Source: a virus
Lineage: Duplodnaviria > Heunggongvirae > Uroviricota > Caudoviricetes
Length of the DNA: 10,767 bases
Virus record (IMG/VR): IMGVR_UViG_2579779035_000009
Strand: one strand, 5' to 3'
Shown: in pieces, positions 1 through 7,800 of the stretch
Layout: every line of letters begins with the position of its first letter
How positions within the stretch are numbered: position 1 is the stretch's first letter
Made by a program: the position numbers and the translations under genes
The notes under the pieces: generated by a model
Told to the model about the DNA's origin: nothing
Databases searched by the model: none
Seen by the model: the letters and a program-made list of their open reading frames with translations, nothing else

Positions 1-65
1 TCGTGTTCAGAGTCATGTGAAATCTGGGGTGATCAATTGGAATTGGAATTCGAAGAGGTAGGGGT

Positions 66-410
66 ATGACAACCGAAATTAACTACCATGCACTGCTTGA
101 GCGCGCACGGAATAAAGTGCAGAGCATTGAGTTCGCCTTAACACAGAGTGCATTCGCTGAGATTCGCGCTGAGCTTGAAAATGATTTAGAACTGGCACGG
201 ATTGCACTGGCATCTCTGGAAGTTGAGCCAGATGAACGCGCAGCCTATGAATTATTTATGGAAAAGCGTTTCGGTAAAACAGTCGATCGTCGGAGAGCAA
301 AAAACGGCGATAACGAATACATGGCATGGGATATGACTCTCGGTTGGATCGTCTGGCAGCAACGAGCTGGTATCCGTTTTTCAACAATGTCACAGCAAGA
401 GGTGAAATAA
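66..410 (+). CDS. hypothetical protein (114 aa), function unknown, possibly island-associated
   Basis: ATG at 66 is preceded by a purine-rich Shine-Dalgarno-like run (GAGGTAGGGG). The 114-codon ORF has balanced, helix-prone composition and is co-oriented with the AlpA-like gene downstream. No family recognised by eye. Confidence 0.45.
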   Translation: MTTEINYHALLERARNKVQSIEFALTQSAFAEIRAELENDLELARIALASLEVEPDERAAYELFMEKRFGKTVDRRRAKNGDNEYMAWDMTLGWIVWQQRAGIRFSTMSQQEVK

Positions 411-541
411 TGGAGCCATACAGCCTCACACTCGATGAGGCCTGTCAGTTTCTTAAAATATCCTGATCTACCATCGCCGTCATAGAGCGTATTTTTATTA
501 CCTGATTTGCAGGTTCGATTCCCTATTCGGAGATAGCACTC

Positions 542-742
542 ATGCAACACGAACTACAGCCTGATTCACTGGTTGATTTGAAATTCATCATGGCTGATAC
601 TGGCTTTGGTAAAACCTTCATCTATGACCGGATTAAGTCAGGCGACCTGCCAAAAGCCAAAGTTATCCACGGGCGAGCAAGATGGTTATATCGTGACCAT
701 TGTGAATTCAAAAATAAGCTCTTAAGCCGCGCCAATGGGTAA
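542..742 (+). CDS. AlpA-family DNA-binding protein (phage/island excisionase-regulator-like), 66 aa
   Basis: Translation contains the AlpA-type pattern: TG-x5-IYD-x-IK-x-G-x-LPK followed by G-R-x-R-W (FIMADTGFGKTFIYDRIKSGDLPKAKVIHGRARWLY). Size of about 66 aa is typical. GGAGAT lies 8-13 nt upstream of the ATG. Assignment is from motif memory, not a search. Confidence 0.65.
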   Translation: MQHELQPDSLVDLKFIMADTGFGKTFIYDRIKSGDLPKAKVIHGRARWLYRDHCEFKNKLLSRANG

Positions 743-1140
743 AATAGCGGGTAAAATATTTCTCACATCTAAAAAACACCATTCCAATCAATCCCCTGCT
801 GCTTCAAGTAGATGTCTGCAGGGGACACCATTTATCATCCCCCTCGCAATAACCCACTTACAATCAGTGAGTTATCTTAAAATCCTTAGTATAGTCAACC
901 AGTACTTCGATATGTGAACGCAAATCATCATGCATTCGTGAACTTAACTGGAAACCTCCCCCATTCGATGTCAAAATGACTACCCCAATAAGTTGCCAAT
1001 AATCAGGCTAATCAATACGGGTCAGTCTTGCTGGTCAGTGATCATAAAAATGTCACCTCATATTAGACTCAGCAAATAATTGTGTCGATTAAACATACTA
1101 CCTTCAGCATAACCGTTCCTGAAAAATTATTATATTCAGT

Positions 1141-1233
1141 AATCTGAATAAATTACTGGCCTGCTATTTTTCTTAGCAACCATATTTAGCAGCAAGCCAG
1201 CAAATCTGAATGATTACAGATGCTGGCCTGCTG
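1141..1233. repeat. Intergenic repeat cluster: two imperfect direct repeats plus a 13-bp imperfect inverted repeat
   Basis: AATCTGAAT..TTAC..CTGGCCTGCT occurs at 1141-1166 and again at 1203-1232. CAGCAAGCCAGCA (1190-1202) is the reverse complement of TGCTGGCCTGCTG (1221-1233) with one mismatch and an 18-nt spacer. Read directly from the sequence. Confidence 0.55.
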
Positions 1234-1267
1234 AATCTCCCTTCTGGAAATCGTCAGAATCTAGTGA

Positions 1268-1798
1268 TTACTTACTTTGTTCTGGTTTCTCTTCATTCTT
1301 ATTGTGCACTTCCACTTTGGGTAATTTATTAAAAACCAGATTTTCTTTTTCAACCAGAGTCATGACTTCTTTGGTGATATCAGCTGACTCGTTATGCGCA
1401 AGCACAACACCTGAAGACAATACGGCAATATTTTTAGGATTGTCTTTTCTCCATGTGCCTATGGCATTATCTATCGCACGGGATAACACCATTTTTGCGC
1501 TATTTTCCTCAATAACATATTGTCGTTCCAGTTTTTGTCTGGCATCAAGAAGCAGCGCCTCTTTATTCGCGTTATCTGCGAATGTTTTTTGCGCATCCTC
1601 ATATCCTTTTTCAAGAATACTCTTAACCTCATTCAGATGCTTTTTGGCCATGTCTCCGGCGGTAGACTGATTATAAATAGCATCGATATTAACAACTGCA
1701 ATTTCTTTTGACTTTTTCATATAAAAAACACCAGTAAGTACAATCAGCAACAGCAGCACTACTGCATTAACAACAGAAAATTTCATTACAGAACTCAT
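1268..1798 (-). CDS. Skp/OmpH-family-like periplasmic chaperone paralog with N-terminal hydrophobic anchor or uncleaved signal (176 aa)
   Basis: N-terminus MSSVMKFSVVNAVVLLLLIVLTGVFYMKK is one roughly 20-residue hydrophobic helix with no obvious AXA cleavage site. After it, KEIAVVNIDAIYNQ resembles the Skp N-terminal strand (IAIVNxxxxxxQ), followed by a K/E/Q/A-rich helical middle. The C-terminal AHNESADITKEVMTLVEKE resembles the Skp C-terminal motif (AYNSSDVKDITADVLKQVK, recalled from memory). AGGG Shine-Dalgarno 8 nt upstream of the ATG; 47 bp downstream of the autotransporter stop on the same strand. Confidence 0.55.
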   Translation of the reverse strand: MSSVMKFSVVNAVVLLLLIVLTGVFYMKKSKEIAVVNIDAIYNQSTAGDMAKKHLNEVKSILEKGYEDAQKTFADNANKEALLLDARQKLERQYVIEENSAKMVLSRAIDNAIGTWRKDNPKNIAVLSSGVVLAHNESADITKEVMTLVEKENLVFNKLPKVEVHNKNEEKPEQSK

Positions 1799-1815
1799 TA
1801 TGACAACCCTGAGGT

Positions 1816-1836
1816 GGCAGGAGGGCCCCTCCCGCC
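1816..1836 (-). promoter_or_regulatory. GC-rich intercistronic stem-loop between autotransporter stop and chaperone RBS
   Basis: GGCAGGAGGG (1816-1825) pairs with CCCTCCCGCC (1827-1836). As minus-strand RNA this gives up to about 7-9 G-C-rich pairs including one G-U wobble. No U-tract follows on the transcribed strand, so it is not a canonical intrinsic terminator. Confidence 0.4.
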
Positions 1837-1845
1837 CCTGTGTGA

Positions 1846-4800
1846 TTAGAATATATATTTAATACCCAGCATTGCCTGGGCATCACTGTACCCTTTATCG
1901 CCAGCCTGAACACCAACATTGCCCCAGACACTCAGGTTATCTGACAATTTACCCTGAACACCCGTTTTGACTTCAGCAATATTTGTAGCTCCGTCCTGAC
2001 TGAGTGCCGTATTATCCATTTTGACACCCCAGCTCCGTGTATTATGGATCCAGTTAACTTCCACAAATGGCTCAAACTGATGCGCCTTATTATCATCAGA
2101 CGCACTCTTACCTTTCAGGTAAGTTCTGACGCCCAGACGACTCTGGATATTACCGTCTCCGCTGAGCTGAACTTTCGTGCCATTCTTCTCCGTATGCTCA
2201 CTGGCTCTTACATTCATCCACGTGATCTGGGACTGCGGCTGAATATACCAGTCATAGTGGCTACCCTGGCTACCGATAAATTCGCCGGCTTTAAAGGTAT
2301 AACCCGCTTCCACTGAACCGGTAAATCCACGGGATTTCCAGGACTCCGCAGCCAGTTTTTCACCATTAACGGTATTATTAAACCATCCGTACTGGATCCA
2401 GGTATCGACATAAGCCCCGTTGTCACTACCGTCATTCTGCTGCCACGTTCCGTATAAACCGGTGCTGTATCCATTGATCGCACCTTTAGATTTATATCCC
2501 GAAAGCGAGGATGTCGTGGAACTCTTCTCATTTCCATAACCGGCCATAATCCCCAGTTGCAGACGGTCCTGACCGTCAGTCCATTGCGCAATGCTGCCAC
2601 CCAGTTGCACAACATAACGGTTACTTTGCGTATTCAGCTGTGAACTGCTGTCCTTCCAGCGATTATGACCGCCGATATGACGCATCCACATACTTGTTGC
2701 TTTCTTCTCACCAGTAAACACATCGGTATAGTAAGTTTCCCCCTCACGATCGTGCATTCTGATGTTGAACAGCGTGTTGGCTGCCGCTATGTTCGCAATA
2801 TAAGAGCCCGCTTCCGGACGATAGACCTTCTGTACAGGTTTATCCGGCGTGGGGTGTGGCTGTGGCTGCGGTTGTGGCTGCGGCTGCGGTTGTGGTTCTG
2901 GCGGCAATTCAGAACGCAGATACCAGTTACCGTCAGTACCACCCGCATTACCTTTATGCAGGAAATATTCCCATGCCCCTGCCACCGCACGGTTCTGCAG
3001 TCTGAAGTTACCGTCAGAATGCCCACCGACATGCACAATCTCAATGCCGTCAGCGGTCTGAGCCCCCTGGCCCCGGACATTATTCACCACCACGCCGGTA
3101 TCACCGGAGGTGTTACCCGTGACAATCAGTTTGTCAGTGGCAGAAGTATCATCCCCCAGCACGGTATTGATAATTAACGTACCGCCACCGGTGTAATCGC
3201 CATTTACGGTCAGGGTATTTCCTGTCTTACCACCGGCCAGACGAATGACGCCGGTATTGGTCAGTGAACCAACCGTAAAATTGCTCGCCTCTGCCGTTTC
3301 ATAACCTGAGAGAGCATTCAGTGATGCCAGTGTTCCCTGGTTATTAACCTGACCCGAAACGGTCCCCAGCCCACTCAGTGTGCCGCCATTAAGAACATGA
3401 ATGTTTTTGGATCCTGACAACGTCGCACCAGCGGCACGGGTGACTGAATCATCACCGACAATCAGAACGCCATTCTCAACCGTGGTATCACCGGTATAAG
3501 TCAGCTCATGATTAATAATCAGATTACCCGCCCCCTGTTTCACCAGAGCGCCGGAGCCAGTAATATCATTCTTCAGTAACCAGTTTCCACTGGCGGTAAG
3601 CCAGGTGACACCATCACTGTCAATCAGCCCGGTGCCCAGGTGTTTTTCATCTGAAGCCCGCAGAGCAGCATCTTTCTGCACACGGAATTCACCGCTGAAA
3701 TTACTGTTATCCCCGGAAAGCGTCAGATCAGTGGTGTTCAATATACCCACTGAACCTTTTCCGGAAAGCGATTTACTCAGGTTACTGCTGACTCCGCTAC
3801 CGTCGGCGATATCAATCGCCAGGCGATCACTAAGGCTTTCAAAGCTGATGGAACCCTGGCTTCCCAGCCCCTGTGCGCCGTTCATTTCAACCAGCGCCCC
3901 CTGGGTAAGGCTGGCATTACCGGTAAACCCGATATTGGTGCCATGTACCGTCAGGTCGCTGCCCGTGACAGCCAGCGTTCCCTCACCGGACAGCACGTTG
4001 TTTTCAATGACGCCACCATTATCATCGCCCGGCTGACGCTGCGTGCCGCTGACCGTTAGCACACTACCGCTATCAAGCTGAATGTGCGATCCCGTTTCTG
4101 TCTGCAGTACACCGACAGTCTGGCTGTATCCGTTTGTTCTGAAGACGGCATTGCTGGCGACGTTCAGATTACCTGTTGCGCCAAGAACATTGTCATTTGC
4201 CATCTGTAATGTGCCGCTGCGCACCAGCGTATCCCCGGTATAGTTATTACCGCCGTTAGACAGTGTGACAACCTGCCCCGCAGCTTCGATGGCCAGATCC
4301 CCTGCCCCCGTTAACTGTGCGCCAAGATCTGTCTGCAGTCCTTGGGCATTCGCTCTCGGTGTCAGCACCAGCGCTTTATCACCGGTTCCCTGTAAATCCA
4401 GCGACTTCAGCCCATAGCCTATGTACAGTCCGTCACCTTTAATCCCGTCGGAGCTTCCCAGCAGCTTATAGTCATAATTTCCCTGAGCTACAACTTCACC
4501 GCCCTGAGTGACATCAAACGTCTGACTGTGAGAAATAGCCTGCCCGTTTTCATCCACCAGTTGCAGTTGCCCGCCAGTACCGGTGACGGTACCCGCTGCA
4601 TTCACCAGTGTGACCAGGGTCTGCGCATCATCCTGCTCCAGCAAATTCTTACGGGTATCAACAGCCGGAATATCATTAATCACTTCATCTGGCATGGTGA
4701 CCTGAATTGTGCCTTTCCCCCGAATATCCAGCGTACCTGCAGCAGAGGTTTCAATACTGTTGCTGGCAATGGTATCGCCCGGCATAACGGAACCAAAAAT

Positions 4801-7800
4801 CAGCGTTCCGCCATTGAACCCAAGACCGCCAATCTGCTGAACACCGGAGCCAACCGTTGTGATATTCCCGCTTTCAGACATCAGCATTGCATGGGTTAAC
4901 CCGCTCGTATTCAGCCCTTCCAGAGCAAAGCTACTGGTACCCAGCTTCAGAGTTCCGGCAAATTGATCCCCGACGTTATGGCTGAATTCAAAAGCAGATG
5001 TGTCGGCATCAAGACGGGCAGACAGTGTTCCTTTGCCTGTTAACAGTGGATCAAAGGTAAAGTTGCCTGCAACTGCAGGAATAATGGCCAGTTCGCTGCC
5101 CGATTCAATATCGACGGACCCCGGGCCGGTCCCCCCATCGGTCAGCACAAGAGCTTCCTTCAGAGTGACAAGTGAACTGTTCTTCAGCCCGACATGTTCA
5201 AAATTCTGTAGTTTTACAACAGAATCCAGCGTATGAATGGCGTTATCAAAAATCAGGGAATCAGAATCTCCCTGCCCGCCATCCAGCAGGTTCCAGGTTG
5301 CCCCTTCGCCTTTAATGGTGAAGGTGTTCTTCCCGGTACCGGCAGTAACCTGATCAACATGAGCCTTACCATTGAGTGTTACATTATTATTGCCATTTCC
5401 TGCAGTCACTTCTCCTGTCAGTGTGCTGCCATCATCAAATAAAAATGTATTGTTACCCTCTTTTGCACTGACGGTTCCGGTAATACTGCCTTTATTGGTG
5501 AATGTGTTATCACCGCCGTTCAGAGCCACAACCCCCTGAATTTCAGCACCGCTGTCATTCAGTACGGTGGTATTCACTGCGTCATCAAACGCCATTGCAG
5601 TCCCGGTGGCGGACGCAGCTTTAATCTGACCTTTATTGGTAAAGGACTGTGCTTTTGAAGCATCCACTACGGCATGACTCAGAGAAGCAGAGATGAGATT
5701 ACCGCTCTGAACCACTTCACTGGCCGCATTGTTAACCACCAGAGCGGAACCGCCATCGGCCTGTGTAACATTGACACTTGCACCACTCTTCACGACAGCA
5801 CCATCTTTAGTGTTGGCAAAAATACCCGTGCCGCCCGTGCCTTTCAGATTAATGACTAATCCAGCGGAGTCAGACATATCCAGGTTAATATCGGTTTCAC
5901 TTCCGTCAGCTTTCTGGAACGCCAGTGCAATTCCACTGCCGTCTACATTAATAGTGCCGCTGTTGGTCTTGGCCAGAGAAGCAGAAGTCCGCACACCAAT
6001 GCCATCAGCCACATTAATTTCAGTCGTATTGGTTAACTGAATGCCTTCAATTTCTGCACGGTTCTCAATCCCGTGACCGACCGCACCTGCAGCATTAACA
6101 TTGATTTTCGCACCATCAATAACCAGCCCCACAGCCCCTGTATCCAGCAGGATGCCATGCGCATTTTTCTGACCTTCGATCGTTCCCAGGCCACTCCCTG
6201 CCAGGTTCAGTGACGCGCCCGCCCCCAGCTTAATGGCAGCCTCACCATCCACAGCGACGATATCCCCTCCCGTGCTGGTAATCTGAGCGTGTTCACCTTC
6301 AACAAATAATGCAACGCCATTGACCGCTATACGGCTTCCTGTATTTTCAAAACGACCATTATCAACCCAGACGCCGATATTATCTGTACCGGTAGTGAAA
6401 TCAATGTTGCCGCTGTTAATCAACAGTCCCTGATTACGCGTAATAAAGCCCTTGGCATTATTCAGCGGCGAAGAGATATCTGCCTCATTGGTAATAACCG
6501 AGCCAGTATTCGTTTGTGTAATACTGCCATCCAGAGCGTATTCATTTCCGTCAACTTCCGCGACAACAGCGCCATCCCCTACAAGGTTAACTGATGCCCC
6601 CTGTTTCAGCGTCGCTGTCGCACCACCAGTTACATATAATCCCTGAGCCTGAGCCCCCAGGATCTGGAAATCACTGCCAGCATCAGCCAGGACATTGCTC
6701 CCTTTCCCTGTGGCCCAGATACCACGGCTGCCTGTCCCGGAGGTTTTCATCAGCAGAGAGCCGGCCTGTTTTGCCCCATCTTCAATACGGAAAAGTACAG
6801 AACGTTCCCCACTAGCATCCAGCAGAGTTCCCGCTGCAATATTCGTCTTAATGGTTGCACCATCTCCGATAATACGAAAAGCAATCTGATCGGTAATACC
6901 AGAGCCGTCAGCAGCAAAGTTCGGTACTGCCGAACCATCAAGGTTAACAGTCCCTTTATTGCTGGCCTCAACGCCAATCGCCCCCTGTCCCTGCAAAGAT
7001 ATAGTACCCGCGGTCATATTAACCGTTGTTGTTGTACCAGATGCTTTTATACCCGTTGTACGGTTAGCATTATCTCCCCCCTTGAGAACGAGATTTCCCG
7101 AGTTATTAATCGTTGTAACATCTTGTGTGGCATTAGCAATTAGTCCCACACCACCATCCTGAACTGTAATATTTCCGCTGTTGGTACCAACAGCCCCCTC
7201 CTCAACCCGGACGCCCACTGTATTCTTTCCAGTAAAGATGATATTACCGGTATTATTTAGAGTGGCCCCATTACGGGCGATATACCCGGTCACTTTATCC
7301 TGGGTGGAACTTAACTGAGCCCCCGCCGTTAATAGTGTGGTCTTGTCCTTCGGATTAATGAGTTTGCCGGAAATATCATAGCCATTGCCATCCGCAATAC
7401 CGGCTATCGCACTGGCATTATCCATATTGATAATGGCATTACTTTCAATTGTGCCCTGCGCTCCCCCTTCAATTAAAGTCGCTGTAGCCCCCTCACCCGT
7501 CAGGTTGATGGTCATTCCTCCAGACGTTACTGTCGAGGCCACACCGCCATCCGATTTTCCCGTGGCAATAAGTGCATAAGAGTTCTTACCAGACGCCGTA
7601 AGTGCAGAAGAAGCATCTGCAGTTCCCTGGAATGTCGCACCGCTGGCAATACGGAATAATGTTGAGTTTTCAGTGGACACATCCATAACACCGCTTCCGG
7701 TATTATGAATGGCAGAGTCCTTTCCATAAACATAAAAGCCTATCTGATCGCTGCTGCCAAATAGCACTGCACCATTGCCTGACAGGGTCAGACTGCCGCC

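Follow-up and report, generated by a model that had tools for sequence, protein, structure and literature searches.

The spacer between the autotransporter adhesin gene upaE and the downstream Skp/OmpH-like gene harbors a stem-loop which comparison across loci identifies as a real, evolutionarily maintained RNA structure, single-copy and specific to this junction. The explanation tentatively preferred for it, at somewhat below an even chance, is that the hairpin could serve as a 3′-end element of the upaE cistron, i.e., an exonuclease barrier of the malE-malF kind. The proposal in a preliminary description of this DNA that the hairpin is a functional intercistronic element and not a chance palindrome was supported by selection on the stems, by compensatory changes and by private substitutions that preserve the fold of the sense RNA.

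The window (the whole stretch of DNA that was analysed, 10,767 nt) represents the upaE region of E. coli, and its positions 1–10499 showed 99.9% identity to E. coli strain 300033. The genes ipuR and upaE and the OmpH/Skp-like gene are all located on the minus strand (Table 1), and the gene layout described earlier, with a 47-bp gap at 1799–1845 between the autotransporter stop and the next start, was confirmed. In uropathogenic E. coli, UpaE acts as an adhesin subject to phase variation (PMC6083910), and the corresponding ORF of the window showed domain matches to ESPR, PATR, AC_1 and Autotransporter beta-domain. The upaE/skp-like junction was present in 253 of the 5426 complete E. coli genomes. 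In the published model, ipuR and upaE form a two-gene operon under the invertible ipuS promoter, and the gene downstream of upaE is not mentioned (PMC6083910). For this Skp-like gene, no sigma-70-like promoter was found above the threshold of the promoter scan, and reading the sequence by eye revealed no convincing promoter hexamers. Co-transcription is plausible since the Skp-like gene is without a detected sigma-70-like promoter, and ipuR, upaE and the Skp-like gene presumably share one transcript.

Table 1. Features of the upaE/skp-like locus, given as positions of the window.
Feature	Position	Strand	Description	Reference
ipuR	9784-10404	minus	LuxR-type regulator	
upaE	1846-9759	minus	Phase-variable autotransporter adhesin, 2637 aa; upstream cistron bearing the hairpin at its 3′ end	PMC6083910
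upaE stop codon	1846..1848	minus	UAA	
Linker	1839..1845	minus	UCACACA, 7 nt, from the upaE stop codon to the first stem base	
Stem-loop	1814..1838	minus	5′ arm 1838-1828 GGGGCGGGAGG, loop 1827-1825 GGC, 3′ arm 1824-1814 CCUCCUGCCAC	
Tail	1799..1813	minus	15 nt from stem to AUG, with Shine-Dalgarno-like AGGGU (1810-1806), no U tract	
Skp/OmpH-like gene	1268..1798	minus	176 aa, N-terminal transmembrane helix; downstream cistron	
Second stem-loop	1189..1238	minus	30-79 nt past the Skp-like stop, -28 kcal/mol over 50 nt, no U tract	

Positions 10500–10767 are the exact reverse complement of the strain 300033 DNA and are inverted with respect to the CFT073 record too, and positions 1–10499 are colinear. 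The comparison identifies this segment as the ipuS invertible promoter element in the opposite orientation. Full-length IpuA denotes the OFF state by definition in the UpaE paper (PMC6083910), and since the strain 300033 and CFT073 records, which have the opposite orientation, encode full-length IpuA, the ipuS switch of the window is probably in the ON state. At the other end, the end of a KplE1/CPS-53-like prophage (torI at 542–742, plus strand) occupies 1–1267 and follows immediately on the Skp-like gene. The argW tRNA-Arg gene takes the place of the prophage end in CFT073 and 042, ∼440 bp downstream; no tRNA is present in the window. Inside upaE, a short imperfect tandem repeat at 2853–2892 (plus strand; GCTGTGGCTGCGGTT...) gave the strongest plus-strand fold in the window as well as a false terminator call, and it is probably a repetitive linker-coding stretch.

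Read as mRNA, the 47-nt spacer and the codons on either side of it are UAA-UCACACA-GGGGCGGGAGG-GGC-CCUCCUGCCAC-CUCAGGGUUGUCAUA-AUG. The inverted repeat reported earlier, 1816–1825 against 1827–1836, was found at exactly those positions, with 10-nt arms that are 90% complementary and separated by 1 nt. The claim that it forms a stable GC-rich stem-loop in the minus-strand RNA also held on folding: the RNA of the window forms 9 bp, a bulged A, 3 bp and a 3-nt loop, with an energy of −20.9 kcal/mol in the 40-nt and 47-nt contexts, far from zero, and −23.4 kcal/mol in 66 nt. The canonical E. coli hairpin, GUGGCAGGAGG-GGA-CCUCCUGCCAC, which is present in CFT073 and Nissle 1917, has a perfect 11-bp stem. 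Among the 40-nt sense-strand folds of the whole 10.7-kb window, the hairpin ranked second in stability. Against dinucleotide shuffles, z-scores of −1.47 (spacer; an equally good fold in 16 of 200 shuffles), −2.23 (40-nt context) and −1.78 (66-nt context) were obtained; taken alone, the hairpin of the window only mildly beats the shuffles and is not exceptional for its base composition. The case that it is more than chance rests on stem conservation across loci and on compensatory changes, and the hairpin is convincing because of these other loci and not because of the fold score of the window itself.

The absence of a U tract after the hairpin and its location upstream of an AGGG Shine-Dalgarno sequence, both noted previously, were borne out. 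The tail following the stem (CUCAGGGUUGUCAUA) contains no U tract and the terminator scan gave no call here, and AGGGU, a weak Shine-Dalgarno sequence, is present at −12 to −8 from the Skp-like AUG. The stem is of the type found in intrinsic terminators (∼5–14 bp, GC-rich, short loop), being 11 bp in the canonical form and 9 bp, a bulge and 3 bp in the window, with a 3-nt loop and −21 to −22 kcal/mol. The U run that such terminators have, taken as at least ∼5 U among the 8 nt immediately after the stem, is absent in the window, where the tail CUCAGGGUUG contains 3 U in 10. Owing to this, the hairpin cannot be grouped with the canonical intrinsic terminators. The strongest sense-strand fold in the window was the second stem-loop (Table 1), and the two strongest sense-strand folds thus each come after one of the two stop codons. 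The second stem-loop is likely to be the 3′ end structure of the operon. Its counterpart in the E2593/pAPEC type has a different stem sequence (GGCCAGCAUCUG versus AGCCGGUAUCUG), which suggests compensatory change.

The 35-nt core was identical in 237 of the 253 complete E. coli genomes with the junction, forming a perfect 11-bp stem, and a metagenome scan yielded mostly E. coli copies with the canonical hairpin. Three further lineages retain the stems and the 47-nt spacer length and differ in the loop, namely, an E2593-type Escherichia lineage on P1-like phage-plasmids (Skp-like protein ∼76–79% identical; loop AUC), Salmonella enterica subsp. diarizonae (63% identical; UGU) and the metagenomic contig L009 (63% identical; ACA), as compared with GGA in E. 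coli. Among these four (E. coli, E2593-type, S. diarizonae and L009), variable columns accounted for 1 of 22 in the stems and 12 of 25 in the rest of the spacer (Fisher p = 0.001). Identity to CFT073 at 4-fold degenerate sites of the flanking genes was 0.66 for S. diarizonae and 0.63 for L009, and the 25 non-stem spacer positions, with 0.68 and 0.64, respectively, corresponded to this neutral rate. The stems showed 21/22 and 22/22 identity (binomial p for the excess over the 4-fold rate, 1.3e-3 for S. diarizonae and 3.9e-5 for L009). As only the stems exceed neutral identity, the comparison indicates purifying selection on the stems but not on the loop or flanks. Read on in the frame of upaE, the spacer closes with a UAA that shares one base with the Skp-like AUG (UAAUG, 1796–1801, minus strand); Salmonella and L009 have UGAUG in the same frame, and the more distant cassettes have no such overlap.

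A profile of the Skp-like protein found zero relatives in a scan of species genomes, and a full HMMER search with it uncovered a wider family. Members of this family located downstream of an autotransporter ending in ...GIKY(T/R)F* all share the hairpin design. In three distant cassettes, the Skp-like protein is ∼33–48% identical. In the cassette designated L084, the stop codon UGA is followed by a 6-nt linker, the hairpin GUGUGGUAGGG-GAAA-CCCUACCACAC and 25 nt to the AUG; in L089, the stop codon UAA is followed by a 7-nt linker, GUUGCCGGAGA-AUC-UCUCCGGCAAC and likewise 25 nt; and in Yersinia ruckeri plasmids, UGA is followed by a 6-nt linker and GAGGGGGCCCG-AUGG-CGGGUCCCUUC, then U6–7, with 32 nt to the AUG. 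The minimum-energy fold of each distant spacer is the hairpin itself (about −22 to −23.5 kcal/mol), and the shuffle z-scores were −7.2, −3.4 and −2.7 in L089, L084 and Y. ruckeri. Relative to E. coli, 3 of the 11 pairs in L089 and 6 of the 11 in both L084 and Y. ruckeri have changed on both sides yet remain paired, although these counts were obtained in a hand-anchored register set on the stem itself and therefore lean towards structure. The MAFFT alignment shifts the arms of the distant hairpins, and a covariance model derived from E. coli-type copies gave only 8.7 bits for L084 and missed Y. ruckeri. Since neither approach recovers homology, the distant hairpins could be analogous and not homologous. 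The recurrence of a perfect or near-perfect 11-bp stem of unrelated sequence at the same distance from the stop can nevertheless be regarded as robust within the four hairpin sequence types that were compared, several of which come from metagenomic contigs. The stop-to-stem distance was found to be 6–7 nt in all four types, whereas the stem-to-AUG distance varies (15, 25, 25 and 32 nt).

Stand-alone Skp-like genes, with no autotransporter upstream, are without the hairpin; in two cases, a promoter-like TTGACA precedes the gene. A trimeric-autotransporter/Skp-like pair of a high-GC organism has a terminator-like hairpin 18 nt past the stop in a 175-nt gap, and other E. coli autotransporters without a partner gene have GC-rich hairpins 9–17 nt past the stop with poor U tracts. 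The Y. ruckeri hairpin with its U tract resembles a canonical intrinsic terminator. A tblastn search of plasmids and phages added only Y. ruckeri and one E. coli plasmid. On P1-like phage-plasmids, a 76–79% diverged autotransporter/hairpin/Skp-like cassette is located near phd/doc, DUF968 and lpa (L086 on pAPEC201602, IncY; L005, L006, L010 and L097–L100), and the L084 cassette lies near a relaxase. As diverged copies ride P1-like phage-plasmids and L084 is near a relaxase, the cassette is mobile as a unit. In the Y. ruckeri loci L088 (2553–2892) and L087, the annotated autotransporter CDS runs frame-shifted through the hairpin to a UAA in the U tract, and the proper C-terminus, ...GGIKYRF*, is present in another frame ∼40 nt earlier; this mismatch implies a frameshift or a sequencing error near the 3′ end. 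In L089, a one-base frameshift in a T run splits the N-terminus of the Skp-like protein.

The copy of the hairpin in the window differs from every other copy seen at plus-strand positions 1825, 1833 and 1837, i.e., U>G, A>G and a loop A>C on the mRNA. Strain 300033 differs from the window at only 7 positions in 10.5 kb, and 3 of the 7 are these; the three AT>GC substitutions are clustered within 13 nt, in the 5′ arm and the loop. None of the three was shared by the 253 complete E. coli genomes with the locus, by 24 metagenome loci or by IMG/VR. Singly, the substitutions cost 0.3, 0.7 and 0 kcal/mol. Jointly, they leave the sense RNA at −20.9 as compared with −21.9 kcal/mol, whereas the antisense RNA loses stability (−17.5 instead of −23.0 kcal/mol), as does the DNA hairpin (−9.8 instead of −13.3 kcal/mol). 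A fold of −20.9 kcal/mol or better was kept by 0.8% of random triple mutants and by 14% of AT>GC triples. Together with the GNRA loop of L084, the private substitutions, which are a single observation, point to the sense-strand RNA as the selected form. The cluster itself may have arisen by a multi-nucleotide mutation or by evolution that was relaxed or compensated, or it may be a sequencing error in a GC hairpin.

Genomes with the hairpin had it at one place (median), and among the 5426 E. coli genomes it was confined to the 253 with upaE. A scan of 185,579 species genomes with the hairpin pattern returned 47 matches in unrelated taxa, about the chance number for a pattern of this length by a hand estimate, and zero in enterobacteria. 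Within the window, including the ipuR–ipuS region, no second copy or half-site of the hairpin was found. A dispersed repeat of the REP/BIME kind was ruled out by the single copy, the lack of enterobacterial matches and the lack of a REP consensus. Searching the whole window against Rfam gave 0 matches at the gathering thresholds; the sole sub-threshold match was ASpks, with 17.9 bits against a threshold of 52 and E = 0.38. The spacing of a recoding stimulator, with a structure 6–8 nt past the recoded codon, is present here (6–7 nt). Stop-codon read-through or SECIS-like recoding was nonetheless rejected because the in-frame extension past the stop is not conserved: it amounts to 15 codons in E. 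coli, up to the UAA overlapping the AUG, and to an unrelated 13 codons in L089, and in L084 an in-frame UAG within the hairpin is the fifth codon past the stop. For the loop and tail, evolution is approximately neutral.

The 176-aa ORF downstream of the hairpin matched the Pfam family OmpH with 27.5 bits, which is below the cut-off of 32.4. Structure prediction with AlphaFold (mean pLDDT 73) showed an N-terminal hydrophobic helix followed by a long helical hairpin on a small beta core, and the best PDB matches to this model were E. coli Skp (1sg2 and 1u2m; probability 1.0, E ∼0.01). On this predicted Skp-like fold and the sub-threshold OmpH match, 'Skp-like chaperone' is a reasonable label for the product, and the name 'chaperone' used in the preliminary description can be kept in that sense, though it is unproven. 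The N-terminal transmembrane helix looks uncleaved, in contrast to the lipoprotein signal (LSGC) of the Yersinia relative. Of the first two AUG codons of the gene, the first is the conserved start, as L009 has AUA at the second.

Three mechanisms had been put forward for the hairpin at the outset, i.e., an attenuator, an RNase processing or stability element, and a translational-coupling modulator setting the chaperone-to-cargo ratio. The sequence cannot separate them, but the last, as a modulator of the chaperone Shine-Dalgarno sequence, is the weakest of the three, as the distance to the start codon varies and the distance to the stop is fixed. By the same reasoning, the element appears to belong to the 3′ end of the autotransporter cistron and not to the ribosome-binding site of the chaperone gene. 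From the established geometry of the ribosome, a linker of 6–7 nt would place the first pair of the stem at ∼+13/+14 relative to the P site during termination, a little beyond the ribosomal helicase. A ribosome terminating at the upaE UAA would hence abut a hairpin located 7 nt beyond it and need not melt it, so that the hairpin would persist on translated mRNA. In the preferred reading, the process would be started by an endonucleolytic cut in the AU-rich downstream cistron, or by weak termination or pausing that does not depend on a U tract. The 3′-to-5′ exonucleases would then halt at the hairpin, a stable upaE message would be left, and the levels of the adhesin and chaperone mRNAs would be uncoupled. 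Both the barrier role and the direction of the stoichiometry are what we infer from the sequence.

Several observations are consistent with the preferred reading of an exonuclease barrier. As in protective 3′ structures, a stable structure is found at the 3′ boundary of the upstream cistron and is conserved in related species; intercistronic structures of this sort are common in the operons of E. coli and show conservation (PMC5927463). The Skp-like gene is most simply placed on the same transcript, as no promoter was detected and the Yersinia arrangement leaves no room for one. By analogy, a barrier would also fit the U-poor GC hairpins that follow other autotransporter genes and the Skp-like gene itself. 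Three points call for caution. The full U tract in Y. ruckeri points to termination, and not protection from decay, as at least an ancestral or alternative role. The fixed distance of 6–7 nt from the stop is needless for an exonuclease barrier and hints at an interaction with the ribosome. Finally, RNase E-like motifs flank the hairpin upstream as well as downstream and hence give no indication of which cistron is stabilised.

The main rival is a ribosome-gated attenuator, which is rather unlikely but carries some weight. The hairpin would then be a weak terminator or pause site, strong in Yersinia, that is held open by the ribosome trailing the polymerase to the end of upaE. The Skp-like gene would be transcribed mainly when the 2637-codon ORF is translated, and a lag in translation would lead to a stop after upaE. 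This agrees with Y. ruckeri, where the same 11-bp stem 6 nt past the stop is followed by U6–7 and where the 32 nt before the Skp-like AUG leave no room for a promoter, which implies expression by read-through. In E. coli, the tR2 terminator was found to be nearly fully repressed a few bp past a stop codon and to regain activity with distance (PMC4824070), a position effect that would explain the invariant spacing of 6–7 nt, and at mccA–mccB, ribosome-controlled intercistronic termination sets the product ratio (PMC4231749). However, the copies of the window, the E. coli type, L084 and L089 have no U tract, with 2–4 U in the first 10 nt past the stem; since the U tract is missing, the E. coli-type, L084 and L089 copies should terminate poorly, and the terminator scan was silent at the site. 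As selection on the stem persists where there is no U tract, termination cannot be the whole function.

It is unlikely that the junction acts as a translation-gated checkpoint. The hairpin lies right at the border of a ribosome halted on the upaE stop, and in this reading only a ribosome that finishes the 2637-codon adhesin ORF would hold it open, so that the Skp-like chaperone would be made one-for-one with completed copies of its very large client. In the Yersinia type, the held-open hairpin would permit read-through by RNA polymerase, and in copies of the E. coli type the region of downstream initiation would become accessible. If true, the checkpoint would represent a client-to-chaperone coupling device of the mobile autotransporter/Skp-like cassette.

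A role in the service of the downstream gene is improbable. The hairpin could be a 5′ stabiliser of a processed skp-like mRNA, as in papBA, or could, jointly with the linker, mask the weak Shine-Dalgarno sequence until it is opened by ribosomes that terminate on upaE, which would give translational coupling. RNase E-like RNWUU motifs are indeed located 13–16 nt before the stem, among the final codons of upaE, in the E. coli type, S. diarizonae, L084 and L089, but a 5′ stabiliser normally has to be only a few nt away from the newly formed 5′ end. Pairing between the stop-codon region and the core of the Shine-Dalgarno sequence is possible through an invariant 3-bp outer helix, AUC/GGU, and the L084 linker, ACAUC, is paired with GGUGU of the Shine-Dalgarno region. 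This helix, however, has only 3 bp, one of them G-U, encloses a large internal loop and is absent from the minimum-energy folds of the 40–47-nt contexts, and the Yersinia linker has no complementarity to its own Shine-Dalgarno region. A weak Shine-Dalgarno sequence (AGGGU) and the overlap of the AUG with an in-frame UAA or UGA in E. coli-type copies (UAAUG or UGAUG) would suit translational coupling, whereas the stem-to-AUG distance of 15–32 nt is not conserved and the stop-to-stem distance is.

It is very unlikely that the hairpin works as a brake on translation termination, stalling ribosomes before the upaE stop and leading to mRNA cleavage, tmRNA tagging and less UpaE. REP elements less than 16 nt from a stop codon stall ribosomes, with a limit of 15 nt, according to the account of Liang et al. 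(2015) given in PMC12306157, and by that account the hairpin, which starts 7 nt past the stop, lies within the limit. Its stability is comparable (−21 to −23 kcal/mol) and its spacing is conserved, but it is not a REP element, being single-copy and absent from other enterobacterial genomes. Judging from geometry, termination need not be blocked, because the first pair at ∼+14 from the P site lies outside the ribosomal helicase. Loss of a 2637-residue secreted protein at its last codons would moreover be very costly.

At the level of DNA, a perfect 11-bp inverted repeat with a variable 3-bp center and a sequence invariant across the E. coli-type lineages could be an operator for a dimeric regulator, e.g., the LuxR-type IpuR, or a cruciform or recombination site. 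This is highly improbable: no second copy or half-site exists in the window, the ipuR–ipuS region included, the distant cassettes preserve pairing and not sequence, the substitutions of the window break the DNA symmetry and spare the sense-RNA fold, one relative (L084) has a GNRA tetraloop, the position is fixed with respect to a stop codon, which is a landmark of translation, and the hairpin lies in the interior, not at the edge, of a cassette that moves between the chromosome, a P1-like plasmid and other plasmids. A small remainder is left for the absence of any present function.

What is new here is an unannotated, conserved stem-loop with a fixed offset from the stop in a mobile autotransporter/Skp-like cassette. 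Protective or attenuating intercistronic hairpins are already known, so that the finding adds no new principle and concerns an ordinary element of bacterial operons. The Skp-like third gene is missing from the published ipuR–upaE operon model (PMC6083910). The conserved stem-loop at the junction and the lack of a separate promoter for the Skp-like gene suggest a three-gene unit in which the adhesin-to-chaperone ratio would be set after transcription initiation. The design of a stop codon, 6–7 nt and an 11-bp stem recurs on the chromosome, P1-like phage-plasmids and Yersinia plasmids, and it offers a compact natural test case for how the distance of a hairpin from the stop may tune expression within an operon.

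Each of the known systems shares some of these features. Partial intrinsic terminators between cistrons and ribosome-controlled termination (the tR2 position effect, PMC4824070; mccA–mccB, PMC4231749) are similar in having an intercistronic hairpin a few nt past a stop that could set a product ratio; among the cassettes, hairpin and U tract are found together in the Y. ruckeri counterpart, whereas the window and the E. coli type are without a U tract. Termination at mcc is triggered when the ribosome binds; from the tR2 data, the reverse would be expected at the upaE junction. Stop-proximal REP elements, in the account of Liang, Rudd and Deutscher (2015) given in PMC12306157, place a stable stem-loop less than 16 nt past the stop (here 7 nt), but the upaE hairpin has neither the REP consensus nor the copy number. 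The 5′ stem-loop of papB–papA likewise belongs to the intercistronic region of an adhesin operon, and RNase E-like motifs also lie a short way upstream of the upaE hairpin; in papB–papA, processing by RNase E is followed by stabilisation of the downstream message, whereas the upaE hairpin is fixed to the upstream stop and not to the downstream gene. In the malE–malF system of differential operon decay (PMC5927463), the element is a REP/BIME with hundreds of copies, whereas the upaE hairpin is single-copy and locus-specific. The two are nevertheless alike in being stable GC-rich hairpins without a U tract that come right past the stop of the first cistron, are shared by related species and precede a second cistron that is AU-rich.
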